A stretch of DNA of 64,000 bases from a virus. The position numbers were made by a program, and so were the translations under genes. The stretch covers positions 80,819-144,818 of the IMG/VR virus record IMGVR_UViG_3300045988_060821. One strand, given 5' to 3'. The notes beneath the pieces were generated by a model. It was not told where the DNA came from. It ran no database searches and saw only the letters and a list, made by a program, of their open reading frames with translations. Position 1 is the stretch's first letter; the number at the start of each line of letters is the position of its first letter. Shown here piece after piece: positions 1 to 64,000 of this stretch.

Positions 1-2457
1 CAAGCTGAGGCAGCGTTACTGCCAAGCTATCAAGAAGAGTGGAATTCTCTTAAAGAGCTTTATGAAAGCACTACAGATGACGCAGATAGACGAGCTATCA
101 TGGATGAAATCAAGAGCTTGCAAGGTAACATCGTGGATTCCGCGAAAGCTATCGCGGAATGGGCAAATTCTATTGAGGACATTGTCCCAGATGCTGTTGA
201 TGCGGCTTCTGAGAGATTTGCAGCATTTACTGATCAGTTAGAGCATAATACTTCTGTACTAGATACTATTAAAGAGCTTTATACTCTACAGGGTGTAACT
301 TATAAGACTGCGGAAGGATTTAATCGTCTCCAAAAGAATAGCCAAGAAAAACTAAACGCTCAGCTAACATCCGCTAAACTGCAAAGAGGTTGGTACGAAT
401 AGGCTGCTCAGAGATTAGAAGAAGCACAAGCAAAACTCGATTCTCTTGGCGGCGATGAAACTGATTTGCGTTATGATGCTTATAAGAAAGCAAGAGACGC
501 ATATCTAGAGGAGTTTAATGAAGCTCAAGAAGCTTATCTATCTTCTGCTAAAGAAGCAATGGAGACAGCGCAAGATATGTATCTCCAGCAAATTGAGAAA
601 GCGGTTTATGAATTTGGTCAAGCCGTATCCAATGGTGTTGGTCTTGACTTACTACAAGATAAGTACGATCATTATATCGAGCAAAATGAACGCTACTTTG
701 ATAAAGTAAATGAAGCATATCAAGTATCTGCTTGGTATAACAAACTTCAGCAAGACATCGACAATACCACTAACTCCGCGCATAAAGAAAGATTAAAAGC
801 TCTCCAAGAAGAGATTAATCAACGCAGAGAAGGTAATAAGTTATCTCAGTATGACCTTGATATTCTCAATGCTAAATACCAGGTATTACAGGCTTAGATG
901 GCTCTTGAGGATGCTCAAAACGCTAAGAACCAAATTCAGTTAGTAAGAGACAGTCAAGGTAACTGGAACTACCAATATACTGCTAACCAAGATGATATAG
1001 CCAATGCTTAGCAAAATCTTCTTGACGCAGAGAATGATTGGTATAATATCGCTAAACAACAGGTAACTGATGTAACGGGCGAGATTGTTTCCACTTGGCA
1101 AGAGTGTCAGGATAAGATTAAAGACATCTACTCCGATATGACACTTACTGACGAAGAACGCTCCGCGCAGGCGCAAGAAATCTATAAGTATTATAGCGAA
1201 AAGATTAAGTATCTCGAAGAAGAGAAGCAAAACGCGATCGCTGATATGACAGAAGCAGGTAATAAGAACCTGATTGATAACGCGATTATCACAGGTGATA
1301 CTATTACCGACTTAACTGGCATTACCACAGAAGAATTGAAGCAATTAGTAGCCGATTCTGGTGAAAGTATTGCTGATATTTTGATGAAGAATAGCGAACA
1401 GCTAAAAGAGATTGCGGGCAACAATACCGATCTTATCGACAAGTTCAATAATACTTATGCCAAGGATCTTGACGACATGACTCAAAATACAACGAATTTT
1501 GAGGATGAACTCCGCAAGTTATTAGATCAAGCACAGCAAGATTTTGATAACTATAAGGATAAGGTTCAAAATGTTGCTTCTGAAACTGGTACTACTCTTG
1601 ATAATTTGGCACAAGAAACTGATAAGGTTTCCGAAGCTACAGATCAATTAAGAGAACGCGGCGATGAAGCTAAGGATACTCTGTGGGATATGATTGATGC
1701 AGCTCAAAACGCTTCTGACGGTTATTTAGAGTTGGCGCAATCCATCTGGGATACCGTTGAAGCATTGCGTGCTCTTGCTTCTCAACAAGCTCAATTTGCA
1801 GCATCTTCTTCTTCTAAAGGCAATTCTAGTAAGGGTTATGATCCAAATACCGATTATTCTGGTGTTATTATGGATGGTATTGCTAATGGATGGTTAGAAT
1901 ATGGAAGTAAAGAATATAAAGAATTAACAAGCCAACGTGAAAATAAAATTGATGATATGGGATTAACAAAAGAATATTTTGGAACTCGTGGCGATGCGGC
2001 AGATAACCGTTATAAAGATTCTACTTCTGTTGGTCAATATGAAAGTGAAGAAGAATGGAAGAAAAAAATGCAAGCATTGGGCGTTCCTGGGTTTGCTACT
2101 GGTGGATATACTGGTATATTTGATGATGCGAAACTCGCTTTCCTTCACCAAAAGGAATTGGTGTTAAATCAAAGTGATACCGAGAATATTCTCGCGGCAG
2201 TTCAAGCTGTAAGAACTATTGGTACGGATTTGTTTAAGTCTATTGAGAAATCTCTTGATGGTAATGCGATTGCGGCAATGGCTCTTATGGGTCAGAAGCT
2301 CAATCCAGTCGCTACTACACCAATTCAAGATTCTATTGAGCAAACTGTTCATATTGATAAAGTAGAGTTCCCGAATGTGACTAGCCGCACTGAAATTGAG
2401 GAAGCATTTATTAGTCTTACTAATGATGCTGCACAGTGGGCCAGAAGAAAGACTTAA
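1..2457 (+). CDS. Tail tape-measure-like coiled-coil structural protein (5' partial). One continuous frame with recoded TAG at 400-402, 895-897 and 1009-1011.
   Basis: ORF-track pieces 100-402, 466-897 and 1138-2457 are all in the same frame. The only interruptions are TAG. It ends in a TAATAA double stop at 2455-2460, followed by a hairpin. The protein is long, Ala/Gln/Glu-rich and coiled-coil with a Gly-rich C-terminal region, as is typical of tape-measure proteins. Confidence 0.5.
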
Positions 2458-2460
2458 TAA

Positions 2461-2485
2461 GGAGAGCTTTTTAGCTCTCCTTATT
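2461..2485 (+). terminator. Rho-independent terminator (GGAGAGCT-TTTT-AGCTCTCC hairpin plus T-rich tail).
   Basis: Perfect 8-bp inverted repeat immediately after the TAATAA stop. Confidence 0.7.
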
Positions 2486-2507
2486 AAAGGAGTGAAAGGA
2501 GATAAAC

Positions 2508-5500
2508 ATGAATAATATATCTGAACAGCTATTACAGGCTATGGATATTATTACGGAAGAAAAGGTAAGATAGTTAAAATATGATAAAACTATCCAAGCC
2601 ACCGTTTATTCTATTGTAGATGTAGATACTGGAGAATACAAAGTTAGATATAACGGCAACATCTTTTCCGCGTTTAGCGAGGATACTAGTAAAAGCTATT
2701 CTATTAAAGATGTGGTTTATGTCAAAGTGCCAGAAGGTAATTTCTCTAACAAGAAGTTGATTACTTCCTTGGTGACTGCGAAGTCTTTATCCAATGCTTA
2801 GTTATCCGATTTAACTAACTCTGTATTTGAAGTATCTCCTACTTTTGATGCATTGTATGATGGAGCTTATGACGCTTCACAAAGTTACGGAGTAATTGCG
2901 GGAACGCCAGTTGGAGAGATCGGAAGTTCTATTTATATTTTTCAAAATAGTGAGGAATATGAGTAGAATGGATATCACGGTTTATTTCAACAATACTCTA
3001 ACAATTATGAGTATATCCGCCTAAAAGCATCTTTCTTAACTCAGTTCCATAATGTCCATAATCAAGGTAATTATGGCATTGAGGTTGAGTTCTATACCAA
3101 GGATAATAGTAGCGTAAAATATAGATTAGATCTCTAGAACTTTAATGGTAATCCTTATGGATTCTCAGTCTACTCTCCGTAGTAGATTATCCTTAAGGCG
3201 CAGAAGAACTATTTAATGGGACTTAAATCTATTAGACTCTTTGAAGAAGACTTTGTCTATGATAAAATTGTTAAGAATGGCATAGTTACAGATAAAGAGA
3301 ATAGAACTGTTGCTAATATTTTTGTAAAAGATATTTCCCTTTAGTATGTTGATATGCAGGATTTAAGTGATACGACCTATTATCTCATGATTTCTGCCCC
3401 CAAAGGTATTGCCTTTACGGATAAAGTATCTAGCTTGAATTTAGTTGGACGCTTAATTTATAATGGCGAAGACATTATGGATAGTAAGAAATGTGTTTGT
3501 CAATGGTATGAGAGAGACTTAAGCGTGGTTGTTGGTAGCGATGAATATAGCAAGTCCGCAGGTTTCGGATGGAGGAAAATTGACGGGCAAACATCTAGCT
3601 CTCTTACTCTTGATGCAACTGATATTCTATATCAATAGAAGTATAAATTAGTAGTCGTCTATAATGATAGCATTACTCTAACTGCGGAAATCGCTGTATG
3701 GAATCGTAATGCAAGTTATGATTATTCTATTGAGCAAGTTACTGATGGTGCTGATATTAAACTACAGATTAGAAATAATGTTGATAGTGAGTCTTTGGTG
3801 GGAGATTGGTATTTATCTTATCCAGATAATAGTTACAGCTCTGTGCCGGAAGGAGAAAAGAAGTCCGAGATTGTCGTAAGTTCTTATTTGCAATACAGTT
3901 CTGTGACTTTCTATTGCATGGTATATAATTCTGCGGGAGAGTTTATCGGAACTTTAGAACATACTATTGTGAATAGTGAGAGCGAAGATGATGTAACTAT
4001 TAGTTACATCGGTGAAGATTCCTTTAGATACGATGCTAATGGCGATATTTCTATTGAAGACGCAGAGAAAGAAAGAACTCTATAGGTTAATCTAGCATGG
4101 AAGGAAGGATTTGGTACTTCTTATTTCGTGTCTTGGTTAATGAAAGATGCGAATAATAAAGAGTACGAGATCCCTACCTCTAAAGAGCTTGCTTATAGTC
4201 CGGACAACTCTATGCTTGAGAATATTTGGGTTGACAAATATAATATTTTACACTACAATATTAAATAGAAGTATAGAGTTAATTTCAGTAATAATACAGT
4301 TATTATAAAAATAAGAACGATTACAGAATCTATTTATCTATTTAATAAAGAGATTCTTTGTTTGAAAGATGGCGACTAGGGAACTAATGGTACTACCTAT
4401 ATTACCGCGATTCGTCCATGTAATTCAGACGGCGTAAAGTTAAGTGGATTACAGCCTTTAAGATATAATAATGGATGGACTAATGATATTAGGGTTCGTT
4501 GTTATGTTTATAAAGATGGAGAATTGATTAACGGTAATAGTAAGTATTCTATTACATATAAATGGCAAGGAACAAATGTCACAGTAGAGAACAAAGAAAT
4601 GGTTACTGATTCCGTTGATCGAGTTCTAGTGCGCGGTATACCTACGATTTCCGCAGATACCCCTAATGCAGAGTTAGCTTTCTATGTGAGAGTTCAAGTT
4701 ACTATTAAAGATGATAATAGCTCGGTTGATATCTACGCTTCTTATCCTCTTGATGTTATCGTTGGTTCTACCTTGGCGAGTGCTATTGATATTGATACTA
4801 TTCCGTCTTATATCAAATATAATTCTTCTGGTTTAACTCCCTCTTTCTATAGTAACGATATTAACTTCTATTATAATGATGTAGCTTATAATGATAACAT
4901 TACCTCGTTAAACACCAATATCCTTACTATTAAGACAGATAATGGTAAGAAATATTTAGAACCAGCTTCTAGCTTTATCTTTGAGAATATTAAGGATAAT
5001 GATTAGAGCAATATCGGTGTATTAAATCTTGCTATTCCAAATAGTAACGATAGATTAATTCATCCAATTATTATGTATCTTGATACTTATGGTAATGAAG
5101 CTATCAACGGTTGGGATGGAACAGCTCTTGATACTGGCGATGGAGAATATGTATTCGCTCCACAGGTTGGTGCAGGAACAAAAGATAGCCAAAATAGATT
5201 TACAGGCGTAGTCATGGGTAAAGATAGTGGCCAAGATAAAGTGGGTTTATATGGCTATCAGGAGGGCGTTAATACTTTCGGTTTAATGGAAGACGGTACC
5301 GCGTTCTTCGGAGCTTCTAGCGGAGGCGGCCGCATTGAGATTAACGGTAAATCTGGTTCTATTAAAGGCGGCGGTGGAGGAAATAATTCCACTGGTATGA
5401 CTATCAATTTTGCCGATCTTAATCCTGGCAATAATACTACTGCAATCAAGATAGGTGGAGGAGTTTTTGAAGTTACATATAATGGTGCTTTAAAAGCAAC

Positions 5501-6398
5501 CTCTGCGACTATTGAAGGTTAGATTTTTGCTCAGTCTGGTAAGATTGGTTGTACTAGCAGAAATAGTAATGATGGTTGGACTATCGAGAAGAATAAATTA
5601 TATAGCGGAAGTGGAGCAACAAGAGTAGAACTAAATAGTGATAAGGATGAAGAGTTTGCTATTTGGGCTGGTGCTACAAGTTCAACTTCTGCAAAAGATA
5701 GCTATTTTGCAGTTTCTAAAAAAGGTTCTCTCTACGCTAAGCAAGGTAATATTGGCGGATGGATTCTTAAGAGTAAATCTCTTTCTAGCAATAACAATAA
5801 AATTGGTATGGCTAGCTCTGGTTCTTATGTATTTTGGTCTGGTGCAAATACCGGTAATCCAGGTGATACTCCAGATTTTAGCAATAGTGGTACCTACTTC
5901 TATGTTACTAATGGCGGAAAACTCTCTTGTAAGAACGCAGAAGTGCGTGGTAACATTACCGCAGATAGCCTTGAATGTGATAATGGTGAGATCGGTGGAT
6001 GGACTATTAGTAGTAATTCTCTACGAGGCGGAAGCACTTATCTATATTCTAGTGGTCGAATTGTTTGTGATGACCTTAACTGTGATGGTGGCAATATCGG
6101 TGGATGGACAATTGGAGAAGATTCAATTTCTGCTAGTGGCACTATTTTACAAAGTGATGGTAACATTTATACTAGGTTAGGTAGAATTGGTCTGGTCGAA
6201 GGAGAAGATAGCCAAGGTACTACTTATAACTTTGGAATGTAGGCAACTGGCGGTAATGGAAGTGTTATCATTCAAACGACATATGGCAATGGTAACGTAG
6301 CTCTACGTGCCGCGAATTATATTATCTTAAATGGTAATAGACTTACTTGCACAGTGCCAGCAGCTAATCAGTCTGGTATTTATGCAAGATTTGCTTAA
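2508..6398 (+). CDS. Giant virion structural protein (about 1296 aa) with about 13 in-frame TAG codons. The C-terminal half carries repeated GxIGGW(T/I)I motifs (tail fibre or baseplate-spike-like).
   Basis: SD box AAAGGAGTGAAAGGAG then ATG at 2508. ORF-track pieces 3354-3638, 3795-4085, 4524-5006, 5073-5522 and 5808-6242 are all congruent with frame 2508. No TAA or TGA occurs until TAA at 6396-6398. Confidence 0.65.
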
Positions 6399-6411: not shown

Positions 6412-7243
6412 ATGCCGAGTGCTTCTCTTACTTTTGTCAGTGCAAGTCGTTCTAGTGTGCAAATTGAGTATGATGGAAGTGGGTGGAATATCCCTGCCAA
6501 TGGGCCTGAACACAGTTCTGGATGGTCTACTATAACAAGTACTGATACTAGACAAGTTCAGTAGAAAACTGTCACTCAGGTAGTTTATGATGTTGCTGGT
6601 TGTACTACTACTTGGCATTGGAGTTTTAGTGGTGGTAATGGTGGTTCTAGTTCTGTTAAGACTGAAACCATTACCATTGGTGGAATGACAGCAGGATCGA
6701 GAGGTAGTGTCACAGGAAGGCTCTCAGCTACAAGAAGTGCAAAACAAAAAAAAGAAGTTTATACACGCACTCGAACTCGTACTAAAACGACAGTAAAAGA
6801 TGATAAAGGAAATACTACTACTAAGTATGGAGAGTGGAGCGATTGGAGTGAATCGGGTCCAAGAACAACATATAGCTCTGCTAGCAGTAAAAATTTAGGC
6901 TCTGCATCTGATACTTTGGTATTTTATACTAAGCCAGCTGAGTTTTCATGGGGTAGTGGTGTAGACACTGATAAAACTATTTAGGTATCTGGTGGACTTT
7001 CAGCTAGTAAGTGGAATACCTTGGTTGCTAGAGTAGAATAGCGGAAGAACTGGGAAAATTAGTCTGGCAGAGCTAATTATAGTGATGCGGAGGTTAGCTC
7101 TGGTGAATTAGTAACAGCCGCTAAATATAATATTTTAGCTAGAGCACTTGGCGTAAGCCAAGTGACAGCACACACAGATAGAACTACCGGTACACTTATT
7201 ACTGCTAGCGTATTTATTGCATTATAGACTGCGGTTAATGCAT
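6412..7243 (+). CDS. Ser/Thr-rich virion-associated protein (about 277 aa) with recoded TAGs; the stop is TGA.
   Basis: SD box TAAGGAGGG then ATG at 6412. Piece 6685-6984 is in the same frame. TGA at 7241-7243. Confidence 0.5.
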
Positions 7244-7261
7244 GAGCTAAAGGAGATAACC

Positions 7262-7721: not shown

Positions 7722-10463
7722 ATGCCAATTAGTATTTATCCGCCTACTTTATAGAGTACATAGCCTGCATTTTTAGCCACTACGCCGGACTATGAAATCA
7801 AATATACTCTATAGAAGGTGACAAGTGCCGAGACTATTAAACATATTCAAATTCGAGTAGTTGAATAGCGCTCAAATTCTAGCATTGTAAATACTTCGAA
7901 ATACCCAGACAATATTATCTATAAGAATGTGGATTTGACTAAAGAGTCTAGCCCTTATGGAATTAAAATCCTAACTGCGGACTTGCGGAAATCTTGGTCA
8001 CCAGGCGTGTGTTATAAGATTCAGTTACGCTTTGGATCTACTAGCTTTCCTACTGACTTAAGTTCTTTTGCCGCATGGAAGAAAGAATAGATTAACAATC
8101 AGACTTTCTCTGAGTGGTCTACTGTCATGATCATTAAAGCTATCGCGCAACCAGAAATTTATATCGAGAATGCCGGTACTTTAAGAACAGATGTTATTGC
8201 TAGTAAGTAGACAGAGGCTAGCTTAACTCCATTATTTGTAGGAGATTATATTGATAATGCTTCTGAGGAACCGTTGGAGAAATATAAGTTTGATCTATAT
8301 GATGAAACTGGAACGGATTTAATCGAGTCATCAGATTGGATTCAAGCAGTTAGCGGTAAGAATAACTCTTATCGGTTTAAGACTATGTTGACAAATAACG
8401 AGTCTTATAAAGTTTATTTTTCTATTGTAACGCGCAACGGATATGAAGCAAGAGTATTCTATGACTTCCAAGCTGTTAAAGTATATTTAGAAGCATTAGA
8501 AGGCGTAACAATGCGTGTAGATGATACAGATGTCTATTGTCGTGAAAACGGTTGTATGCGAATTTATCTAACCGCAAAGAATCCATTAACTGGATGTTAT
8601 GTACTTACTCGTGCATCTGAGGAGAGTAATTATCAAGTATATGAGGATTTAAAGTATTTTAATTACTTTGAAGAAACTCTTAATGATAACCTAATTTATA
8701 CAGATTTTATTATCGAGAGTGGCGTCAAATACAAGTATGCTTTCTAGTATCAAAACTCTCAAGGATTGCGGAGCGCGCCTTTGCAAGAAAGTGGTTCTCC
8801 TATTCCAGCGAGAAGTGTTGACTTTGAATACTCTTATCTATATAGAGATGGAGTATAGTTGCGTTTGAAGTATAATCAAAAGCTCAGTAGCTTTAAGCAT
8901 ACGGTACTAGCGAGCAAGCAAGATACCCTCGGAGACCAATTCCCGCATTTAGCGAAGAATGGTTATGCTTATTATGCCGAGTTTCCAATTAGCGGTTTAA
9001 TTAGCTTCTAGATGGATGAAGACTAGACCTTTTTTACTTTAGGGACAGATGGTTATTATTATAATAATGAGTTGGTAATCCCTAAAGATAAGTTTAGTAT
9101 GTCTACTGCGGCGAGAGGAGAGATTACAGCTCCTTCTTATCTTGCTATTGATACTAATATTACCGATGATAATATTTTTATAGAGCGTAAGTTTAGAGAG
9201 AAAGCTGAATAGTTCCTTAATGACTTTACTTATAAACTCTATAAATCTCCAACTGAGGGAAACATTATTGTTGGCCTAATGAATGTATCAATGACACCTA
9301 ATGCATCCCTAGGGCGTATGATTTTTGAGTTCTCTGCTACTGCTTATGAAGTTTTAGAGAATACGCTTGAAAATCTTAACGAGATTGGCATTACTGATAT
9401 TGGAGTTTTTAGTAATGAAGTATCTACCGAAGAACAATCTGCATTTGGTCAGATTAGTGGTATCTATTCAGGATGTCCTGAAGGAGATGATATCTATGCT
9501 TTAATTAAGCAATAGGAAGAGATTGCTGTTGGCGATGGTCGATATAAGTTGTCTCTTATTAATGTCGATTCCTTCTGGATTGAGAGATATCCAACTATTG
9601 ACTTTGATGGTAAGATTTATGAGTTAGAGGCAAAGAAGGCTGAACAAGAGCAAGCTGGAGAAGATACTAAAGAGACAGAAGCTGAACTTACTCGTTGGGC
9701 GGCACTAAAAGAAGCCGCAAGTAATGCTCCATCTTCTGCGGTTAAACTTGCTGTTAATGGAACTGATATTATTGTAGCTCCAAATAGGTTATATAGTGTC
9801 AGAGAGGGCGTCAGCTCTTTAACTATGAAATCTGTTAAATATCCCATTATTGTGAATTATGTCTGCTCTTTAACAAGAGAAAGAAATGATGAAGTCGGTG
9901 AAGTAGAATCTATTGATACTTCCCGTATTTGGGGCTAGATTTCTGGTATCTTCAGCGGAACTGATAAAGTCTTAAAGAACTATAAGTATTACTATGGACC
10001 TGGCGAGACTCCGTATCGTATCTATAGTGATTCTACTGTGGAAGAAGATAAGTTGGGTCGTATCTTGGTAGATAATACGAACTATAATGTTTATAAGACT
10101 ATCAATCTATATGATATTATAGAAGAAGAAACTCGTAAGCAAGTAGAGTTTATCTATAATATTCAAGGTGGATTTGAGCAAGATGAAGATGGTAAATGGA
10201 CAGATGGAATTATCTATTATTCCTTCTCTGATATTACCTCCTTCGACATTGAAGCAGACCCGCAAACCATCCTATATATCGGCCAAGAAAAAGATGGTAG
10301 CGATAAGCATCCAGTTATGCTCGGTCCAACTGGTCGATATACCCTTAGCCCGATGGATGGTATGATTAAGTATATTGCTTTATAGAAACCACAATTTGCG
10401 GTTATTAACTATAAATGCCTAACCGCGCAGACAACAATGAAGTATAGCAAAGAAAGGAGTTAA
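7722..10463 (+). CDS. Large virion structural protein (about 913 aa) with many recoded TAG codons.
   Basis: SD box AAAAAGGAGG then ATG at 7722. Pieces 8274-8747, 9279-9515, 9549-9938 and 10038-10385 all share the frame. The first non-TAG stop is TAA at 10461-10463. Confidence 0.6.
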
Positions 10464-10468
10464 TATTC

Positions 10469-12372
10469 ATGTTTGAGTATCTTAATGACATGGATTTTCT
10501 AATCTAGTTAGATAAGTTGCATATGCGAGTACAGTATGCAAAAATTATTCTCCTTTCTTTCAAGGACGAAGAACCTATTAAAGAGATTTAGGGTTCTATC
10601 ACGAGTGGCAACTTGAGTGTTAATGGTTCTTCCGCAATTAGAAGAACCATTAACCTTACTATGCTTGCTTCTATTGATAATAGTAATCTTGAAGATATTG
10701 ATAACGAGATTTCTATTAACAAGAAGATTAAAGTCTTAATTGGTTATGACAATCCATTAAAGTCTTATAAGAACTATGGAGATATTATTTGGTTTCCTTG
10801 CGGCTTGTTTGTTTTATCCTCTGCTAATATTAGCCGCTCTACTAGTGGTTGGAATATTTCTATTACGGGTAAAGATAAGATGTGTTTATTAGACGGAACC
10901 GCAGGCGGCACTTTGCCGGCATCAATAACCTTTCATGAAAGTCTTGTTTAGCTTGATAATGGAGACGTAGAGATTCAATATCCTACTATCTTTCAAATTA
11001 TCTATGAAGCGGTAAATCACTGGGGTGGAGAAGCTATTGAGAATATTATCATTACTGACATTGATGAAGAGATTAAGATGTTAGTAAGATATATGGGAGA
11101 TAAGCCAGTATATTTCTCCAATGACTACTAGAGTTTAAGCTTTGAAGCGCAAGCAGATTATCCGCATATGTTTAGTTATGGACAAGATGTTGGATATAAG
11201 TATACCGACTTTACCTATCCAGGAGAGTTGGTATTAAATGCAGGAGACACGGTAGTAACTCTATTAGACAAGATTGTTAGCACTCTTGGCAATTATGAAT
11301 ATTTCTATAATATAGATGGCAAGTTCGTATTTCAAGAGATTAAGAATTATCTTAATACCGGTAGTCCTCTATTAGAGTTAAGTCCAGAAGACTATGTACG
11401 TTCATATAATAATGCAAAGTTTTTATACTCGCTTACCGATCTTGACACGACAACCGCGATTACCCGCAATCCTAAGTATGATAATGTGAAGAATGACTTT
11501 TATGTTTGGGGCAAGCGTAAGACTTCAACAGGCGTAGAGGTGTCTATCCGTTATCATCTTGCTATTGATGATAAGCCAGATATTGACTTAGCTATGTAGA
11601 ATATGTGGGAAGTCAAAGATAAAGAATCTAACCTTATTGTGCGTTATGATTTCAATACTCTTGATGAATACAGCGTGGATGGTTATGTAGTTACCTTAGT
11701 AGGTACTCCATGCGACGAGTGGAGAGAAGAGCTATACCGTCGTGCTCTTAATGCTTAGGTATCTAATAGTGTCTATGATAACTATTATGATTCAGAGCTA
11801 ATTGCGGAGTGGCGTAATCTATATAATCCAATGAACAAGAATTGGGATGCTACAAATCATTGGAACCCAGATGTATTTAATGACCCAGGTTCTATTAACT
11901 TCTGGCTAGATTTTATAGATACTAGTTCCGCTCTCGGTAAGTATTCTATTAAGAATATTGGCCGTAGGACTAAAGTCGTTAATAATAATGACATAAAAAC
12001 CGTATATAATAGCGAAGTTCCTGATGTTGTATTTATTGAAGGATTAGATTAGGACTTGATTGTTAAATATCAAGGGATTGGTTAGAGATTCTTTATTCTA
12101 ACCAATGAATACTATGATATGTTTTCAATAAGCACTACTGGAACTAGTTGCTTTGACCAAATTCGAGAAATGATGTATTAGAATTTATGTTATAATACTA
12201 CTATTTCTTTAACCTGTTTGCCGAAATATTATATAGAGCCTAATAATATAATTAGGGTTGAAGATAAAGATAGCAATATCTATGGTAATTATCAAATTAC
12301 TCAATATTCTCTACCTCTTACTTATAATGGCGCTATGAGTATTACTGCAACAGAAGTTTTAACACGAGTATA
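10469..12372 (+). CDS. Virion structural protein (about 634 aa, baseplate or tail-associated) with recoded TAGs.
   Basis: SD box AAAGGAG then ATG at 10469. Pieces 10613-10951, 11168-11599 and 11831-12052 are congruent. TAA at 12370-12372. Confidence 0.55.
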
Positions 12373-12386
12373 AGGAGGAGAGGGCG

Positions 12387-44558: not shown

Positions 44559-44613
44559 TACGCTCCTTTCTTTACATTTTCTATAACTATTATACCATAA
44601 TTATAATAAAAAA

Positions 44614-44650: not shown

Positions 44651-44654
44651 AATC

Positions 44655-45629: not shown

Positions 45630-45702
45630 AATTATCTTTCTCCTTTAATTATTTTATTTATAATGAGGAAATGAAAGGGGTAGATAACTACCCCTTATTT
45701 AA

Positions 45703-47032: not shown

Positions 47033-47087
47033 TTAATCCATTTCCTTACCTTTTATACATATATAATAACATAAAATTAAAGAAAAA

Positions 47088-49680: not shown

Positions 49681-49729
49681 AAGTAAAAGAAATCGGTAAG
49701 AGGCATAATCCTCTTACCGATCTAATTTA

Positions 49730-49993
49730 TTACTCCTGGGCGTCAGGATCGAAAGCCAAGCCCTTATCAGTCAAGCGAAGATACTTAACTTTCTGATGGG
49801 AGCCATCGGCAAGCTCAACCTCAGCGGGCTCACGCACACCATAGTCCTTGCGCTGTAGAGCAGAGGTAAAAATACCATCAACCTGGCGCTTCTCAAGACC
49901 AAGAGCTTCAGCCACATCAGCGGCAGTTAGATCCTTGTCAGTATTGTCCTTTAGATAATCAAAAACCTTACGAGTATTTTCCTTCATAGCCAT
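49730..49993 (-). CDS. Small hypothetical protein (87 aa).
   Basis: Intact ORF; TAA stop. Confidence 0.3.
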   Translation of the reverse strand: MAMKENTRKVFDYLKDNTDKDLTAADVAEALGLEKRQVDGIFTSALQRKDYGVREPAEVELADGSHQKVKYLRLTDKGLAFDPDAQE

Positions 49994-50022
49994 TGTAATA
50001 ATCTCCTCTAAAATGTATTATT

Positions 50023-50218
50023 TAATTCTCGATGCAATTAAAGCATCAATTTCCAGTAAAGCATTTATCCCATCGGGAAGAGCCATAATCTAGTTAGTTA
50101 ACTGCATAATTCGGTCTTCTGCGTGGGCTTTTTCCTCTTTTGAGGAATTTTCATCTTGGTGAATAAGTTCGCATTTATAGATTTCATCTGCGAACCGCTT
50201 CATCTGTTTACGGGTCAT
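50023..50218 (-). CDS. Small hypothetical protein (about 64 aa, 1 TAG).
   Basis: ATG at 50218; TAA near 50023. Confidence 0.25.
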
Positions 50219-50286
50219 ACAATCTGTCCTTTTTACTATTGCTTTTCTGAATTACATATATATTATATCAGAAAATATTTTTTAAG

Positions 50287-51435: not shown

Positions 51436-51449
51436 TTATTGTAAACTCC

Positions 51450-51683
51450 TTATCCCGCGAGCAGTGACATTAAACCGGCACAAGCAAAAATGCCAAGAGT
51501 ACAAATAGAACTTATGGTAAATTCTATCCAAAATATCCTAGACCATTGGGCGGATTTTTCCTCGTCGGGAAGGTTTATAAGTTGCATAACAATACTTATA
51601 CTTAAAGCTATGCACCCAATTCTTACTATCTCACGCAATACAAATGCTACTACAGTAATTAGTCCAACTAAAAATGCACTCAT
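51450..51683 (-). CDS. Small two-TM membrane protein (77 aa).
   Basis: Intact hydrophobic ORF. Confidence 0.35.
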   Translation of the reverse strand: MSAFLVGLITVVAFVLREIVRIGCIALSISIVMQLINLPDEEKSAQWSRIFWIEFTISSICTLGIFACAGLMSLLAG

Positions 51684-51746
51684 ATAATAATTAAATCCTT
51701 TCTTCTTATATAAATATATTATAATAATTAAAAAGAAAAGTCAACT

Positions 51747-51780
51747 AAGAGAAAGAATGGGTATACCCATTCTTTCTCTT
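51747..51780 (-). terminator. Stem-loop (AGAGAAAGAATGGGTA-TACCCATTCTTTCTCT) downstream of the topo II A-subunit gene.
   Basis: 16-bp inverted repeat. Confidence 0.55.
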
Positions 51781-54142
51781 ATACTTGCGTGATAGAAATC
51801 ACTTGTTCGTTGTTCTTCAGCATGATATTGCCCATGGAAACTCGACCAAGAGTAGGAATGTCTTTACCACTAATAACAATAGAAGACTTGTCACCATTGA
51901 TAAGGAGATTATCACTTTCTTTGATAATCTCCGCTCCGGCGATTTCTCCCTTATAGCAGAGTAATCCCTTGCCTCCACGATTCTGTAAAGTAAGTTCATC
52001 AATCTGCATTTTCTTACCCAAGCCATTCTTGGAAACAATAGCGAGATAATCTGCGGGATCCACGATCGGCAATGCTGCGATTACACTGTCGCCATCATTT
52101 AGTTTCATGCCCTTAACCCCTTGTGCTGTGCGCGAAGAGATAGGCATTTCCGTGGTTCCAAATCGAATAGCCATGCCATTCTTTGTTACCAATAACATCT
52201 GCTCTTGATTGATAAATGTAACATCTGCAAGTTCATCGCCGTCTTTAAAGCTGATGGCGATAATGCCAGTACGCTTCATCTTATCATATTCATCAAGAGG
52301 AACCTTCTTGATAGTACCATTCTTTGTGGCAAAGAAGATAAACTTCTTGTCAGTATCTCTGGTCATTGTTGTAAATGCCATAGGTTTCTCGCCATTCTCA
52401 AACTCAATTAGAGTGGAGATAGGCGTTCCGTTAGACGCATTTGTACCTTCTGGAATATTATCCACTAATACACGATACATCTTGCCCTTAGAGGAGAATA
52501 CCATCAAGGTATCTTGTGTATTAGTTTTTTGCGAGAAGAGAACAATATCACCGGTTTTAACACCAGTAGTATTACGCTTTTGAGCTTTGAAATTTTTAGC
52601 ATCAATACGCTTAATAGTGTTCTTCTTTGTCACTACAACTACGCAATCCTTCGGCTCGACGATAACTACTTCTTTCTCTTGCTTTGGAATGTCGGTGTTA
52701 AGCAGTTTAGTTCTACGAGCATCGCCATAAGTGTCTCTTAACTGAGTAATCTTAGAGATTAAGACTTTATTTCTTACTTCTTTATCAGTTAGGATTTCAA
52801 TACACTTAGCAATAAACTCTTTCTTTTCTTTTAACTCATTGACTAATTCTTCTTTATCAATACGAGTTAATTTGCCGAGCTTCATATCGAGGATTGCGTT
52901 TGCTTGCACTTCATCAACAGAGAGGAAATCCATTAACTTGGCTCTCGCATCAGCGCGTCCCGCAGATTGTTTAATCAATGCAATTACTTCATCAATTTTA
53001 TCAACTGCGGCGATCAGACCTTCAAGGATATGTGCTCTTGCTTCGGCTTTCTCTTTATCAAAAGTTGTGGCATTGACAAGAACATCTTCTTGATGGTCAA
53101 CATACGCATGGAGTAAGTCAACCATAGAACAGAGCTTAGGTGTGCCATTGACAATATAGTTCATGTTATAGGATAAAGTGGACTGTAAATCTGTCAGCAA
53201 GAATAATTTATTCAATGCTTTAGACACAGATACTCCATCCTTCACATGGAATACCAGCTTGTTCTGGCCGATATTAGACTCATCGTCGAAGTCATCAATC
53301 AACTCACTCAAAACATCAATATTCTTCTCAATCTGTTCTTTAATCTTATTGCGGTAGGTACGATAAGGAATACTGGTGAAGACGATATCTTGTCCATCAA
53401 TCTCATAATCACCCTGGATTTTCAGAGAGATGTTAGATTTACCTGACGCAAAAGCCGCCCGCACATCCTTAATGTTAAGAACTGTACCACCGAGAGGGAA
53501 ATCTGGACCGGGGATATAGGACAATACTTCATCAATAGTCAGTTCGCCCTTCTCAATTAGAGCAATAGCAGCATTACATACCTCTGTCAGATTGTGCGGG
53601 GCAGAGTTATGCGCCATAGAAATGCCGATTGCCTGACGACCGTTACAGATTGCATTAGGGAATAGTGAGGGAAGAACGATAGGCTCTTGAAACTCGCCAT
53701 TATAAGTCTCTTTAGTAGGAACAACATTCTTACTAAAGTCATTCATCATCAGGTCGGTAAACTTAGAAGGCTTAGCCTCAGTATAACGAGAAGATGAGAA
53801 CATATCGTTATTTTCCTGCGTGCCCAACTGTCCTTGTCCAGTTACAAGAGGATAGCGCATGAGGAATTCCTGCGCCATCTTCCGCAGAACACCATAGCAG
53901 GCAATATCACCATGGAAGTAGGAGGTTGCCAAAGTAGAACCAATGATAGCATTACACTTCTTAGTCTTACTCTTGTTATCCATCTTGAGATAATCTTCCA
54001 TTGTCCAAAGAATCTTTCGCTGAGCACTAAGGAGACCATCTTCCGCGGCAGGAATCGCACGATCGGTTAGAACTTCTTCTGCATAAGTTAGAAAGTTATC
54101 TTTAGCTTCATCAAGAATATCAACTTCTGTAATCAAACTCAT
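51779..54142 (-). CDS. Type IIA topoisomerase A-subunit (GyrA/ParC-like; T4 gp52-like) (787 aa, no TAG).
   Basis: N-terminal breakage-reunion domain motifs (AIPAAEDGL...RKILW) and a C-terminal repeat region. Confidence 0.85.
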   Translation of the reverse strand: MSLITEVDILDEAKDNFLTYAEEVLTDRAIPAAEDGLLSAQRKILWTMEDYLKMDNKSKTKKCNAIIGSTLATSYFHGDIACYGVLRKMAQEFLMRYPLVTGQGQLGTQENNDMFSSSRYTEAKPSKFTDLMMNDFSKNVVPTKETYNGEFQEPIVLPSLFPNAICNGRQAIGISMAHNSAPHNLTEVCNAAIALIEKGELTIDEVLSYIPGPDFPLGGTVLNIKDVRAAFASGKSNISLKIQGDYEIDGQDIVFTSIPYRTYRNKIKEQIEKNIDVLSELIDDFDDESNIGQNKLVFHVKDGVSVSKALNKLFLLTDLQSTLSYNMNYIVNGTPKLCSMVDLLHAYVDHQEDVLVNATTFDKEKAEARAHILEGLIAAVDKIDEVIALIKQSAGRADARAKLMDFLSVDEVQANAILDMKLGKLTRIDKEELVNELKEKKEFIAKCIEILTDKEVRNKVLISKITQLRDTYGDARRTKLLNTDIPKQEKEVVIVEPKDCVVVVTKKNTIKRIDAKNFKAQKRNTTGVKTGDIVLFSQKTNTQDTLMVFSSKGKMYRVLVDNIPEGTNASNGTPISTLIEFENGEKPMAFTTMTRDTDKKFIFFATKNGTIKKVPLDEYDKMKRTGIIAISFKDGDELADVTFINQEQMLLVTKNGMAIRFGTTEMPISSRTAQGVKGMKLNDGDSVIAALPIVDPADYLAIVSKNGLGKKMQIDELTLQNRGGKGLLCYKGEIAGAEIIKESDNLLINGDKSSIVISGKDIPTLGRVSMGNIMLKNNEQVISITQV

Positions 54143-54156
54143 AAAATCACTCCTTA

Positions 54157-56055
54157 TTACTCAAAATTGAAACCGAGTTCGTTAGCATTATCGTAGATAT
54201 ACTGCTTGCGCGGTTCAACTGCGCTGCCCATCAGAATATTGAGTAATTCTGTGGTTTTCTCTGCGTCAGAGATAGAAATACACTTATATCTCTCATTCAT
54301 AAAGCAGACCTTCTGCAAATCTTCAGGATTCAACTCGCCAAGGCCCTTAGCACGCAGTAAATCATACGAGCCGTTATGACTATTCTTCCACTCTGTTAAT
54401 TCATCTTCGGAGTAACAGTAATACTCTTTTCCTTTTTGACGAATAATATACAATGGAGTTACAGCCCTGTATAGCTTACCAGCTTCCACGAGAGGCCGCA
54501 TATAGGTATAGAAGAAAGTGATAAGCAGAAGTTCAATGTCTGCGCCATCACTATCTGCATCAGAAGTAATGACAATCTTGTCAAAATTCATCTTGTTGAC
54601 ATCAAAAGAAGAATCAAATCCAGCGCCAATTACACGCACAATATCTGACATCTCTTGATTCGCAAGAATCTTGTCTACCGCAGTTTTCAGCGGAGAGACA
54701 ATCTTTCCGCGCAACATATAGATGCAGTCAGTCTTGGGGTTGCGGGCCTCCACCGCAGATGCGCCTGCGGACAAGCCCTCTACGAGAAGCAGGTTACGAT
54801 TTTTAGGATTTTTATTTGTGCAATCAATAAATTTGTTACTGATTTGCATTTTTGCCTTAAGACCAGTTTCCTTTTTCGCTTTTACACCACGGGCTGCATC
54901 TCTTGCCTTACGAGCAGCTTCTCTAGCCTTACGAGCATTAAGTGCCTTATCCGCGATTCCCTTAATATCTTTCTCATTAGCGGCAAACCAATATTGAAGC
55001 TCCTCTGCGATCGTCGCAGTAAAAGGCTTCATATCGAGTTTAACAACTCTACTCTTGGTCTGAGCGTCATATGCAACGCCGGGAGCGGTTACATTAAAGG
55101 CAATATACATACCTTCTTGACAATCTTCACCAGTAAGATTTTCGTCCTTATCTTTTAGCCACCCTTTTTCACGAAAGAATTTATTCATCTCTCTCGTGAG
55201 GATGGTTTTAATCTGCGTAATATGCGGACCTGAATCTGTAAGACCAGTATTTACATAAGGAACAATGGTCGCAGAATAAGCATTTGTATAGGTCAGAACT
55301 AAATCCAGCTTGTTCTTGCCATCAGAAAAATTGAAGTTTAAGCGATTCTTCAAGATTTCCTTACCCTTAACTGCTTCATCTACTAAGTCCATAAGACCAT
55401 TCTTCGAAGCGAAGATAATCTGCGGCTGGCCCTCTCTATTCAACTCGATAGTCAGACCGGGGCACAGGCACGCAATTACCTTAAAAAGATTGGTAATGAC
55501 AGGTATATCTACCTCTGGATGCGTGAAGAACTCTTCATTAGGTTGCCACTGAACCAGAGTACCAGAGGGACTATTCTTGTTATCCCATGCGCCAGTATCT
55601 CGTTTATCAAAGACACCTTCCTTAAACCAGATATGCTCATACTTACCATCTCGATGAGTAATTACCTCAAGCCAATGAGACAGATAAGTGGTCAGCTTAC
55701 TACCAATACCATTCAAACCAAGAGCAGTACCTTCATAAACGCCATCGTCAGAATACTTACCAGAAGTGTTTAGCACGCTAAAAGACGCTTCAAGTACAGT
55801 CTTACCATCATCACGCATGGCATTAGGAATAAATCCCTGACCGTTATCTTCTACGATAATAGTATTATCCTTTTTAATAGTAACAATAATCTTATTACCG
55901 TGACCCGCCTTAAATTCATCGACTGCGTTAGAGACAATCTCAATCAATAGCTGAGTAGAATACTCAGTGCTGCCGACGTAAACGCCCGGCCGCAGTCTTG
56001 TAAACTCTAATGGAGAAAGTGACTCGATTGATTTCTCGTCATATAGTTTTCCCAT
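54157..56055 (-). CDS. Type IIA topoisomerase B-subunit (GyrB-like; T4 gp39-like ATPase plus TOPRIM) (632 aa).
   Basis: GHKL ATPase motifs (EIVSNAVDE, DNGQGF, GLNGIGSK) and TOPRIM (LLVEGLSAG...DADSDG). Confidence 0.9.
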   Translation of the reverse strand: MGKLYDEKSIESLSPLEFTRLRPGVYVGSTEYSTQLLIEIVSNAVDEFKAGHGNKIIVTIKKDNTIIVEDNGQGFIPNAMRDDGKTVLEASFSVLNTSGKYSDDGVYEGTALGLNGIGSKLTTYLSHWLEVITHRDGKYEHIWFKEGVFDKRDTGAWDNKNSPSGTLVQWQPNEEFFTHPEVDIPVITNLFKVIACLCPGLTIELNREGQPQIIFASKNGLMDLVDEAVKGKEILKNRLNFNFSDGKNKLDLVLTYTNAYSATIVPYVNTGLTDSGPHITQIKTILTREMNKFFREKGWLKDKDENLTGEDCQEGMYIAFNVTAPGVAYDAQTKSRVVKLDMKPFTATIAEELQYWFAANEKDIKGIADKALNARKAREAARKARDAARGVKAKKETGLKAKMQISNKFIDCTNKNPKNRNLLLVEGLSAGASAVEARNPKTDCIYMLRGKIVSPLKTAVDKILANQEMSDIVRVIGAGFDSSFDVNKMNFDKIVITSDADSDGADIELLLITFFYTYMRPLVEAGKLYRAVTPLYIIRQKGKEYYCYSEDELTEWKNSHNGSYDLLRAKGLGELNPEDLQKVCFMNERYKCISISDAEKTTELLNILMGSAVEPRKQYIYDNANELGFNFE

Positions 56056-56702: not shown

Positions 56703-57026
56703 TTAAATGGTTGCTTCATCCTCGACTACTTGCTGCTATTGTTTCTCACACATAGCTAAATCATAAGTAATCCCACCCTTGCGGTGATCGGATTTACTCA
56801 TGTTTAAGTAAAAAGAGCAAACAATACCATGCGCAGACCATGGCAATCCTACTAATGCACTAATCCATGGGAGAGTACCCAGATAACCAAGATGTACGCA
56901 ATAGAAAGCAAGAGCAATACCGGAGATAGTTACAATCCACAAGAGAGAGCGAATGTCGCAAATAAGCTATTTAGAAAATTCTTTTTTCTAGCTATGTTTT
57001 CCTTTTCCTCTTGTTTGACGACCCAT
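56703..57026 (-). CDS. Holin-like small membrane protein (about 107 aa, 2 TM, charged termini). Its ATG overlaps the endolysin TAA (TAATG); 3 recoded TAG.
   Basis: ORF 56736-56942 extends upstream through TAGs to an ATG at 57026 and downstream through TAG 56736 to TAA 56703. Two hydrophobic helices, located immediately after the endolysin. Confidence 0.45.
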
Positions 57027-58432
57027 TATTGACCACTCTTTTCAGCATAACGCTTTAGAACAGCCGCAAATTCGCCACGAGTCATAAAGCGTTTTGGCAT
57101 CAACTGACCTTTTTCATTGCCATTGATTAAGCCATTAGCCTGTGCCCAAGTCATTGCGTCTTGCTCCCAGGTGACTGGTTGCGCAGCGAGCTGACTAAGA
57201 TATACATTCATCATTTCATTGAATTTTTCTTGAGTCATGTCTTCATCATCCTCCTCGATAACTTTAGACTGCATTAAAGCAGCAACATCTTTGCGAACGG
57301 TTGTCATATCTTTGCCATATTTCTTGAACCAATGGTATACATCAGCATGGTTACTACCGAGGCCCAACTGATAGCTATCTTGATGGCAGAGAATGGTTGG
57401 AACTGTTACGCCATTTACATTTACAGAACCATTTGGATTGATATTATATGTCTTACATAAGTAGGCTGTCAATTCGCAAGCCTCTTTGTAGACTTTAGCG
57501 AAGTAATCGGGGTCACTTAGATTGTCTTCGCAGATTTCAAACTGAATCCATCCAGTATTACAGCTACCTTTAGAGCCTGAGCCGCAACCCCAAGGTCTAT
57601 AATTCCAAGGTAGTGTTTGTACTGCGGCTACGCTTCCGTCAGCAAGAGCACCAATCCAAGCGTTTACACCAGCCTGCTATGAGCTATGATTCCAATCGGT
57701 TCTACTGGTATTTTTACCAATTTTAGTAATCAGAGATTGATAGTTCTTGTCGTTCTCAGACGGTTGAACATAACGCTTAATAGTTTTATTATTGGCGCCT
57801 GTACTGTGCCAGAGGACGCCTTTAATATCCATCTTGCGGGTTTGCTTATAACAAGTGCTATTAGTCATCATGCAAACCAATGGGTGATTAGCGTTTGAAT
57901 ATTTCATCTTAGCTATTTCCTCCTTTTGCGTTGAATAAATATTGAAGTAACGTTGGCTATATAACGCACGCTATTTTAGTGTGCTAGAGCTCTGATCTGC
58001 CGGTCTTTCAAACTGAGTGACCACCAAATTAGATGCTTCTTCAACAGATGAGGTAGTCTTCAAGATTTTTAATAGCTAGGAGTAACTTGTAGTTAGTTCC
58101 TGATATAAAAAATCTAGTTGGGTGTTTAAGTCACCAATAGACTTTCCTCGACTTTTACACAGCTAAAACAGACCTTGCTTGCGGCTCCAATATGTCCATT
58201 GAGCTAAACCATATCCCGCAGAATCATGCGTGAAATTGGTATAGGAGCCGTTATCAACAGCCGCAGTATACGAGGCATCGTTCATTCCTAACTTACTCTC
58301 ATATGAGTTCTATAAGTTAGTTGGAATAAGTCCGCTTTCCGCGAATAGATTCCCCATTAGACCTGCGGCACCGCAGTTACTTAATCCTTTTGATTTGAGA
58401 TAATCCCAAATAACTTGAGCATTATCCGCCAA
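57026..58432 (-). CDS. Three-domain endolysin: N-terminal lysozyme-like (phage tail lysozyme family) domain, central Amidase_2 (N-acetylmuramoyl-L-alanine amidase) and C-terminal SLH cell-wall-binding domain. About 468 aa with about 6 recoded TAG.
   Basis: One frame runs from TTG 58432 (SD box GGAGGTGAGG) through pieces 57677-57907 and 57026-57472. N-terminal domain motifs AGLMGNLFAESG...GYGLAQWT...FERP. Amidase_2 motifs LWHSTGANN...NAWIGALADGSV...GWIQFEICE...ILCHQD. SLH domain W..DAMTWAQANGLINGNEKGQLMPKRFMTRGEFAAVLKRY. Confidence 0.8.
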
Positions 58433-58454
58433 TGACCTCACCTCCAATTAGGAT

Positions 58455-62907: not shown

Positions 62908-62913
62908 TATAAG

Positions 62914-63618
62914 TCACTTCCTTTTAGGTGTTGTAATGGCTTCAATTCTCGACATTCCATTTTTCATACGCTTGTATACTGAATTTTTTGAAATATTATA
63001 AATGGAACACCAATCTTTGAAATTGTGAAATTCTCCATTGATTTCAATTAACTTGCTGGCTTCTTCTATGGGGATGTTATTTGGAATGATTTCCAGTGTT
63101 TCTGGATTATATTCCCTAAATATAAATCCCTTTACTGTTTTATATCTGTTACTACCGGATGCGCATTTTCTAATACTAGCTCTATCAGTTCCTAACTCAT
63201 GAGCTGCGGCAGTTATTGTAGGAAAAAATTTCTTTTCTCCACTTGTTTCTGAAATGGCACAAATGGGTGTTGCCAATTTAGCTCGTACTTCTGGATCATC
63301 AAACGGATATTCTGTGTTTAGAGTTTGATTATATCCATGCTAAGAGGTTAAGCTATTATATTCAATAATTGCATCATGCTCTAATTTATATCTTTCTTCT
63401 GGAGTTTGAATATCTTTTATTAAGATTTGAAAATCAAAATTCTCTATACCATATTTTCTTATGGCTCGATATAATGGATATTCATATCCTGCGCGAGATT
63501 CGAGACGAGCATTTTGCTAATGTTCATACCACCTTGTTGTAAATCCTCGTGACTAGTCACTGGAACCAATATAGGTTTTATGGTTAATCAGATTTTCGAT
63601 TTTATAAATGAAATACAT
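62914..63618 (-). CDS. Free-standing GIY-YIG homing endonuclease with C-terminal NUMOD/IENR-type HTH DNA-binding domains (about 234 aa, 3 recoded TAG).
   Basis: SD box GGAAGGTGATAAA then ATG at 63618. N-terminus MYFIYKIENLINHKTYIGSSD-Q-SRGFTTRWYEH...E..YN..L..GYN. C-terminal piece 62914-63276 carries KKFFPTITAAAHELG...VKGFIFREY HTH modules. TGA stop. Confidence 0.75.
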
Positions 63619-63707
63619 TTTATCACCTTCCATTTATAAATGGAAATTCTTACAGACTCTTTTATTACTTCTGACCTCATCTTTGATAGTCATTGAAAAA
63701 CTTATTC

Positions 63708-64000
63708 TTAATGATGCACACGCACCTCGATATTAGAAAAACCCCAATTAGTCTTAGGGAACTCTTTTTCAGTAGGAATAGAAAATCCCTTCTTCATCTT
63801 CTTAATTGCGGAATCGGGGATTCTGGCAACGCCAGTCCGCTGAGCATTACGCTCAAGAGCGGTTTCGACAGGGACATCAATGACTTCAAAGGTCAGTTTG
63901 GTATGCGGATCTGCGATCAACCGACCAAGGAGCTTTGCGCGAGAAGCGGGGCTAATATGAGTCGCATCCGCAAACACAACATCAATACCAAGTTCCATAG
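63708..64000 (-). CDS. C-terminal part of a P-loop kinase-like (polynucleotide-kinase or AAA_33-like) protein. The N-terminus lies outside the window.
   Basis: ...VVFADATHISPASRAKLL...TFEVIDVPVETALERNAQR pattern. The ORF runs off the window edge. Confidence 0.35.
   Translation of the reverse strand, partial: MELGIDVVFADATHISPASRAKLLGRLIADPHTKLTFEVIDVPVETALERNAQRTGVARIPDSAIKKMKKGFSIPTEKEFPKTNWGFSNIEVRVHH

Follow-up and report, generated by a model that had tools for sequence, protein, structure and literature searches.

The window analysed here, a stretch of 64,000 nucleotides (nt) of viral DNA (positions 80,819 to 144,818 of IMG/VR record IMGVR_UViG_3300045988_060821), uses TAG as a sense codon, and its genes terminate only at TAA or TGA. 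Reading of TAG as glutamine (Gln), as in NCBI translation table 15 (code 15), is the best explanation of the sequence data and we hold it to be very probable. The source is a tailed phage of gut bacteria with a genome of about 140–150 kb.

Genes were called greedily, with the longest open reading frame (ORF) taken first and overlaps of up to 60 nt allowed, under four sets of stop codons. The standard bacterial code (code 11) gave 98 genes with a coding density of 0.809 and a mean length of 176 amino acids (aa), as compared with 67 genes, a density of 0.962 and a mean of 307 aa when TAG was treated as sense. Freeing TGA (95 genes, 0.819, 184 aa) or TAA (102 genes, 0.857, 181 aa) as controls hardly shifted these values, and the gain is therefore specific to TAG and not a trivial effect of dropping any stop codon. 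It is largest in the tail block (1–23500), where density reaches 0.977 instead of 0.714 and mean length 427 instead of 124 aa. A preliminary description of this DNA had proposed the recoding, suggested a comparison of tables 15 and 11, and warned that the ORF track mis-segments most late genes; the table-15-type reading does raise both density and gene length, and code 11 shreds about half of the genes, including nearly all tail genes. After curation, 66 genes remained (density 0.952), with 137 in-frame TAGs spread over 32 of them. Among the 65 complete genes, 51 end in TAA, 14 in TGA and none in TAG.

Three frames were discarded during curation. Freeing TAG opened a minus-strand frame at 18079–18501, which is an Asn-rich translation of a retroelement template repeat, and a plus-strand frame at 60553–62337, which is antisense to a Band_7/flotillin gene (60667–62166, minus strand). 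Naive code-15 ORF calling thus over-predicts here. The plus-strand frame 15768–16235 is likewise antisense and was replaced by a minus-strand membrane-protein gene at 15755–16204.

Recoded frames were scanned against Pfam with TAG written as X, and single domains were found to run across TAGs in five families. RVT_1 (9.2e-16, residues 92–343) spans three TAGs in the reverse transcriptase of a diversity-generating retroelement (16850..18115, minus strand, nine TAGs), and Resolvase (7.6e-25, residues 3–146) spans four in a small serine recombinase of the resolvase/invertase type (22761..23423, plus strand, seven TAGs). In a RecJ-like DHH exonuclease (39432..41180, minus strand, three TAGs), DHH (residues 68–211) spans the TAG at codon 154, with DHHA1 and RecJ_OB downstream; one TAG does directly follow the DHH motif, as had been noticed, and the frame continues for about 428 codons rather than the 365 first estimated. 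Phage_lysozyme2 (residues 8–170) covers four TAGs in the endolysin (57026–58447, minus strand), and GIY-YIG (residues 213–293) another four in a homing-endonuclease-like gene (48763..49680, minus strand). In the anaerobic ribonucleotide reductase NrdD (30376..32616, minus strand) the ATP-cone (residues 3–91) and NRDD (residues 117–740) lie in one frame on either side of a single TAG, the minus-strand CTA at 32269–32271, which is codon 116. The positions first given for this codon, for the TAGs at 400, 895 and 1009 and for that at 22869–22871 in the recombinase were all in frame.

A sister phage (ENA ERZ27298439 k141_564418, 155 kb; loci L002 and L003) is syntenic with the window over about 13–32 kb, at 40–80% aa identity and about 75% nucleotide identity where alignable. 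It has a density of 0.93 under code 11 with no gain from code 15, and its orthologues of the reverse transcriptase (400 aa), the recombinase (201 aa) and NrdD (758 aa, with the ATP-cone and catalytic domain fused) are uninterrupted single ORFs. The alternative that the TAG-containing frames are unrelated adjacent ORFs, which the preliminary description had named as fatal to its proposal, is ruled out by these orthologues and by the domains that cross TAGs. The standard-code sister and the window phage form a natural pair for studying the evolution of the code switch.

The window has a G+C content of 38.7%. A tail module, recognised with PHROGs, occupies 1–23.4 kb (the tape-measure C-terminus, large tail proteins and tail fibres) and is followed by a small regulatory region, a minus-strand replication and nucleotide-metabolism block at about 27.9–56 kb and a lysis cassette at 56.7–58.4 kb. 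Near-identical metagenomic contigs are 138–148 kb long, and the window therefore represents less than half of a large siphophage genome. The host is probably a Clostridia-type Firmicute, to which two observations point weakly: the endolysin carries a C-terminal SLH domain, suggestive of an S-layer on the host cell, and relatives with 79–80% identical polymerases are whole-phage-sized contigs binned into Oscillospiraceae and Eubacterium metagenome-assembled genomes (MAGs). Clostridiales MAGs also occur among the bins of relatives (L242–L249). One window protein is indexed in 584 blocks of a public assembly collection, and the phage is very common in the gut. Annotation, host-range inference and protein clustering for it must use table 15. 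Positions 1–25000 of the window had no megablast match among 50,697 GenBank phage records.

Four lines of evidence agree on Gln as the inserted residue, and three of them (solved structures, the sister phage and population data) are free of circularity. The recombinase TAG at 22869–22871 lines up with a Gln both in gamma-delta resolvase (SLDIQ) and in Sin (NLERQ), and the solved structure of Sin resolvase (2r0q) has Gln at four of the six aligned TAG sites. The endolysin offered one informative site in the solved-structure search, its first aligned TAG, at which Phi29 gp13 has Gln; the search with a RuvC-like protein of the window found nothing. When window and sister phage were aligned at the DNA level, 43 window TAGs faced CAA in 16 cases, CAG in 4, Lys codons in 5 and Glu codons in 4, with the rest scattered. 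Gln is therefore found at 47% of the TAG sites (20/43) against a background of about 4%; Tyr is found at two, Ser at one and Leu at none.

The population data comprise 20 contigs that are about 95–97% identical to the window. At window TAG sites these contigs have TAG 1283 times, CAG 89, CAA 60 and other codons 19 times; conversely, where the contigs have a TAG that the window lacks, the window has CAG 160, CAA 92, GAG 20 and others 7 times. Changes to or from CAG or CAA make up 89–90% of all changes at TAG sites. Of the one-step neighbours of TAG other than CAG, several are absent or nearly so there (TTG, TAC and AAG 0, TGG and TAT 1 each, TCG 4), and CAA lies two mutations away. The predominance of CAG and CAA, even of the two-step CAA, over these other neighbours indicates synonymous exchange with Gln.

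The fourth line, a comparison with 120 recombinase homologues, has Gln in the column of TAG 22869–22871 in 115 of them, and five of the seven TAG columns are 78–100% Gln. A degree of circularity attaches to it, since recoded relatives translated with Gln are among the homologues (for example P0002, which is not back-translatable under code 11). The original argument for Gln, drawn from the invariant Gln of the D(I/L)Q motif, thus stands in gamma-delta, Sin and most homologues alike, and the residue preference at TAG extends to Phi29 gp13, the sister phage and the population data.

The use of TAG differs strongly between gene classes. Expressed as TAG/(TAG + CAA + CAG), its share is 23% in tail genes (61 of 263), 22% in lysis genes, 36% in the retroelement block, 44% in the serine recombinase and 48% in two homing-endonuclease-like genes, as against 3% (9 of 322) in 29 replication and nucleotide genes (tail vs replication: odds ratio 10.5, Fisher p = 8.5e-15). 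The reassignment, first described as genome-wide, is so for the code and not for its usage. This bias matches the pattern of Borges et al. (10.1101/2021.08.26.457843), in which structural, lysis and intron/homing-endonuclease genes are recoded and use in replication genes is variable; these authors take it to mean that late genes are kept from being translated before the code has switched.

No tRNA was found in the window with ARAGORN or with Rfam at gathering thresholds; as a positive control, ARAGORN recovered the CUA tRNAs of phage phAss-1 (see below). The right end of the window was passed by walking from a TAG-free 154-aa window protein to contigs 95–99% identical to window 49.8–64 kb, followed by three IMG/VR steps. 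The first loci reached, around the 154-aa protein and around a NAMPT gene, held no tRNA. The walk then arrived at an array of about 28–36 tRNAs and a transfer-messenger RNA (tmRNA), including one tRNA with a CUA anticodon that scores 54.5 bits against the Rfam tRNA model and is kept in every close relative with a fully covered array. One contig of 148 kb, IMGVR_UViG_3300045988_054378, overlaps the window (L017) at 95.5% nucleotide identity, has recoded tail genes (L117) with 96% aa identity (density 0.976 under code 15, 0.706 under code 11) and carries the tRNA(CUA) at its positions 394–484 (L049:394-484). Since this single contig joins window overlap, tail genes and tRNA, the tRNA(CUA) can be placed about 34 kb past the window's right end. 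The array also holds tRNA-Gln(CUG) and tRNA-Gln(UUG) and is oriented in the same way as the early genes, which would fit early expression of the suppressor.

Hence a tRNA with a CUA anticodon, one of two things recommended for a search of the remaining genome, exists in near-identical genomes outside the window; for the other, release-factor manipulation, no gene was found in the window. The release-factor GGQ motif had no match in six-frame translations of the window and of 3.47 Mb of further loci. Neither synthetase nor amidotransferase nor anticodon-binding domain was detected by Pfam in ORFs within the tRNA array of a close relative. Given the lack of a GGQ release factor and of a synthetase-like array protein, we infer charging by host enzymes and competition with host release factor 1 (RF1), as the phAss-1 authors assumed. 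No theta/HDV-like ribozyme or other Rfam family was found beside the CUA tRNA at gathering thresholds, the presence of a theta model in Rfam being unchecked.

Some further RNA genes of these loci deserve mention. The tmRNA (L048:5587-5932, also L049:3167-3510) scores 100.8 bits in Rfam and encodes the tag peptide DNNYFDSHMAA. A tRNA-like gene (L024:1954-2027 = L049:8563-8636), found in at least eight relatives, has an 8-nt anticodon loop, GUUAAAAG, to which ARAGORN assigns the four-base anticodon 'taaa'; its score against the Rfam tRNA model is no more than 36 bits, and the gene could be a frameshift-type or other non-canonical decoder. A tRNA-Cys(GCA) of 87 nt (L048:16149-16235) bears a long variable arm, with stem CCC/GGG and loop GCAA, as well as U73, an unusual architecture for tRNA-Cys of which 12 distinct versions occur across related loci.

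The tRNA(CUA) (L049:394-484, also L048:2805-2895), of 91 nt, combines a long variable arm with a U1–U72 mismatch and G73. Long variable arms are normally found in Ser, Leu and Tyr tRNAs. The D-arm resembles that of short (type I) tRNAs and not that of Ser or Leu tRNAs, and the G18G19 and T-psi-C motifs are present. When ten divergent long CUA tRNAs, including that of phAss-1, were aligned, the cloverleaf showed abundant compensatory changes, and the variable-arm hairpin consisted of a covarying stem and an almost invariant 7-nt loop. The loop reads CUCUGAA in the window lineage, compared with CUCUAAA in the true anticodon loop. It thus resembles an anticodon loop displaying CUG, a Gln anticodon. 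The tRNA(CUA) of phAss-1 (L011:12442-12532, minus strand), also 91 nt long, has the same variable-arm loop.

The pattern used to scan IMG/VR consisted of no more than the CUA anticodon loop, a long gap and the T-loop, and left the variable-arm motif unspecified. Taken together with the relatives, the scan gave 43 distinct long CUA tRNAs (85–97 nt), of which 33 (loci L123–L238) contain the motif Y-U-[CUG or UUG]-[A/C]-N as a 7-nt loop closed by 2–5 bp, with CUG in 28 and UUG in 5. This motif is absent from all 174 long tRNAs of other specificities (Ser, Leu, Tyr, Cys and others) taken from these loci, and the ten long CUA tRNAs that lack it are mostly of Ser/Leu type in appearance. Because the sole alternative to CUG is UUG, the other Gln anticodon, a role in Gln identity is the most economical reading. 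It is possible, and we propose it tentatively from these sequence comparisons, that the suppressor of this lineage belongs to a widespread class of phage tRNA(CUA) with a 'pseudo-anticodon' hairpin in the variable arm. Such a hairpin would offer a G36-containing Gln anticodon to the host glutaminyl-tRNA synthetase (GlnRS), or to a non-discriminating glutamyl-tRNA synthetase (GluRS) with GatCAB, and so permit charging with Gln despite the CUA anticodon. The sequence pattern is the result; the functional reading is a hypothesis.

No description of a natural pseudo-anticodon in the variable arm of suppressor tRNAs was found in the searchable literature, in which the nearest system is the synthetic design of Mukai (PMC7590224). 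There, engineered amber suppressors bear a 'pseudo-anticodon arm' in the variable arm, like the natural CUG/UUG loop seen here, and this hairpin can recruit the anticodon-binding domain of the synthetase and enhance charging. Mukai's system differs in being synthetic, in having His identity and in requiring a synthetase to which an extra anticodon-binding domain has been fused. A geometric difficulty noted by Mukai is the large distance between the variable-arm tip and the CCA end (PMC7590224). If functional, the hairpin would be a natural answer to the problem of keeping Gln identity on a tRNA with a changed anticodon and would be relevant to genetic-code engineering. We regard this as the lead most worth following, and it could matter more than the recoding itself. 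The classical Gln-inserting amber suppressor, supE of Escherichia coli, is a tRNA-Gln whose anticodon is CUA and whose variable loop is of the normal short kind, unlike the long variable arm of the phage tRNA(CUA).

Following the published model of Borges et al. (10.1101/2021.08.26.457843), the host would read TAG as a stop. TAG-free early genes would be translated at once, and genes with TAG would give complete proteins only once the suppressor tRNA of the phage had built up, received Gln from host enzymes and outcompeted RF1. The code change would in this way act as a timer or lock on late and selfish genes, and the window phage would be another independent case of a phage that locks such genes behind a stop codon.

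That TAG is sense for a different residue (Ser, Leu, Tyr or pyrrolysine, Pyl) seems very unlikely. Such a decoding would suit the one CUA tRNA detected in close relatives, with its 91 nt and long variable arm, and ARAGORN labels this gene 'tRNA-Pyl', an assignment that we reject since it takes only the anticodon into account. The exchanges at TAG sites, overwhelmingly to CAG and CAA with four TCG, one TAT and no TTG or TAC, and the aligned residues of the standard-code relative (20 Gln, two Tyr, one Ser and no Leu among 43) argue against this. The tRNA itself has a type I-like D-arm, and its weak or mismatched 1:72 pair and G73 are as in tRNA-Gln. Its G18G19, T-psi-C and long variable arm are all absent from tRNA-Pyl, and 137 TAGs that exchange with CAG and CAA differ from the rare, gene-restricted TAG expected for Pyl. 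No Pyl-related families turned up among the approximately 24 of 66 window genes scanned against Pfam or PHROGs or among the precomputed Pfam labels of relatives' genes.

Equally improbable is programmed leaky termination in place of a code change, in which a near-cognate tRNA-Gln(CUG), of the host or of the phage array, would decode TAG with low efficiency and no dedicated suppressor would be involved. The window itself has no CUA tRNA, the array does include the two tRNA-Gln genes, and suppressor tRNAs were seen in only 40% of TAG-recoded genomes by Borges et al. (10.1101/2021.08.26.457843). Essential tail proteins, however, contain up to 14 TAGs per gene, and read-through of a few per cent would leave negligible product; a bona fide tRNA(CUA) is present in every close relative with a fully covered array, and TAG never serves as a terminator in the window.

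A slimmer chance still is given to a host that itself reads TAG as Gln, with the phage matching its code. The lack of any window gene ending in TAG would agree with this. Replication genes, however, shun TAG tenfold more than tail genes, which is not expected of an ordinary Gln codon in use throughout infection, and the sister lineage, about 75% identical in nucleotides, uses the standard code with TAG as the stop of 2 of 34 genes. No bacterial lineage with TAG = Gln is known. Finally, the default code-11 reading, in which TAGs are real stops and the frames are pseudogenes, assembly errors or adjacent unrelated ORFs, has next to no chance of being right and nothing beyond its being the default to favour it, as TAG is kept in 1283 of 1451 site-by-genome comparisons with about 20 contigs that were assembled independently, Pfam domains run through TAGs without a break, density in the tail block is only 0.71 under code 11 and the standard-code relative encodes the orthologues as single ORFs.

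Certain points weigh against decoding as Gln by a phage suppressor, or against the timing model that goes with it. For this phage, the case for Gln is made from sequence comparison. The window has no tRNA, and the suppressor is assigned to this exact genome from relatives that are about 95% identical. This tRNA has the shape of a Ser, Leu or Tyr tRNA, so that its charging with Gln is not self-evident, and no release-factor or aminoacyl-tRNA-synthetase gene was found in about 100 kb of this genome type. With nine TAGs in 'early' genes (NrdD, the RecJ-like gene, a helicase and others), early and late genes are not sharply divided. For the host and its genetic code, the SLH domain and the MAG bin labels are the only indications.

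TAG = Gln in phages is already well described, and the window phage is a further case of a known phenomenon. The large-scale survey of Borges et al. (10.1101/2021.08.26.457843) cites earlier reports from crAss-like phages, jumbophages and Lak megaphages, and its own phages (Lak, crAss-like, Jade, Sapphire, Agate, Garnet, Amethyst and Topaz) show the same density diagnostic, a spared replication module, close relatives with the standard code and suppressor tRNAs. By size comparison only, the window phage may fall into the Agate class (154 ± 27 kb), of which the lineage analysed in depth by these authors is TGA-recoded; the large terminase, by whose phylogeny the clade would be assigned, lies outside the window. 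Protein-level proof of the code comes solely from metaproteomics of code-15 crAss-like phages, in which TAG was decoded as Gln (Peters et al. 2022, PMC9523058); these belong to an unrelated phage order with Bacteroidota hosts.

The NCBI taxonomy has a node 'Caudoviricetes code 15 clade', which includes phAss-1 (OQ749652; Babkin et al. 2023, PMC10607447), a gut siphophage that has a genome of about 136 kb and uses TAG = Gln in 41 ORFs, tail and tape-measure genes among them. It has a large tRNA array with tRNA-Sup(CUA), no dedicated synthetase was reported (PMC10607447), and its module order is broadly like that of the window. It differs in having two CUA tRNAs next to nrdD, where the window has none. 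The three described members of its proposed genus 'Phassvirus' are 80–86% identical to one another, whereas proteins of phAss-1 and the window share 23–40% aa identity, with no megablast match in the phage collection that contains OQ749652. The window phage is therefore not a Phassvirus and belongs to a different genus or higher taxon. Its closest cultured relatives are SPbeta-like Bacillus and EF1-like Enterococcus phages (genomes of about 125–142 kb), with a DnaE/YorL-type polymerase about 40% identical over its full length; Babkin et al. report no recoding in Enterococcus phage EF1 (PMC10607447).

The tail module, on the plus strand, begins with the C-terminal 818 codons of the tape-measure protein (1..2457), which has PHROG matches and three TAGs, at 400, 895 and 1009. 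The 1296-aa tail protein that follows (2508..6398) ends in TAA and is interrupted by TAG and by no TAA or TGA, as first stated; there are 14 such codons and not 13. About 20 related contigs, which need code 15 as well, keep this frame. Next come a 277-aa structural protein (6412..7245, five TAGs), a 913-aa tail protein (7722..10463, 14 TAGs) and a 652-aa tail or baseplate protein (10415..12373, 10 TAGs) with a PHROG tail-protein match, which is 96–97% identical in 19 IMG/VR contigs and TAG-recoded in all 19. A 639-aa tail protein (12978..14897) has six TAGs; four of the five that could be aligned to the sister phage are CAA or CAG there. A tail-fibre protein (21074..22138) contains four TAGs.

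The diversity-generating retroelement within this module is complete (16850–20996, minus strand), comprising the reverse transcriptase, a template repeat (18366–18468), a variable repeat (19094–19196) and a target gene (19077–20996). The two repeats, of 103 nt each, share 78% identity, and template adenines account for 22 of their 23 mismatches. The variable one lies at the C-terminus of a Big_3/DUF6273 tail-fibre-like protein. A 164-aa ORF between target gene and template repeat (18501..18995, minus strand, five TAGs) is, by its position, a candidate accessory (Avd) gene. Both this ORF and the reverse transcriptase themselves need TAG read-through.

The serine recombinase, in which the sister phage has CAA at five of the seven TAG sites, is of Hin/Sin type and lies directly 3' of the tail-fibre genes (21074–22742), with a 27-nt imperfect palindrome at 22746–22805 at its 5' end. 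No convincing long inverted repeats flanking the fibre genes were found. The recombinase could be a tail-fibre inversion switch or a resolvase.

On the minus strand, the RuvC-like resolvase (27438..27917) has eight TAGs in 159 codons, the highest frequency in the window (5.0 per 100); at five of the eight sites the standard-code relative has CAA. The replication and nucleotide-metabolism block (27917..56055), with nine TAGs in 29 genes, encodes dUTPase, NrdG, NrdD, guanylate kinase, a DnaE-type polymerase, SF1 and AAA helicases, thymidylate synthase, dihydrofolate reductase, ligase and gyrase B and A. The lone NrdD TAG sits exactly between the regulatory ATP-cone and the catalytic body, and translation before suppression would give only a free ATP-cone fragment of 115 aa. 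In the lysis cassette (56703..58447), a 107-aa protein with a hydrophobic stretch (three TAGs) adjoins the endolysin (five TAGs), which has an Amidase_2 domain in addition to Phage_lysozyme2 and SLH. The GIY-YIG gene, with 13 TAGs in 305 codons (4.3 per 100), is embedded in the otherwise TAG-poor replication block, and an I-HmuI/NUMOD-like homing endonuclease (62914..63633) has three TAGs in 239 codons. These TAG-rich homing-endonuclease-like genes echo the recoded intron endonuclease reported by Borges et al. (10.1101/2021.08.26.457843).

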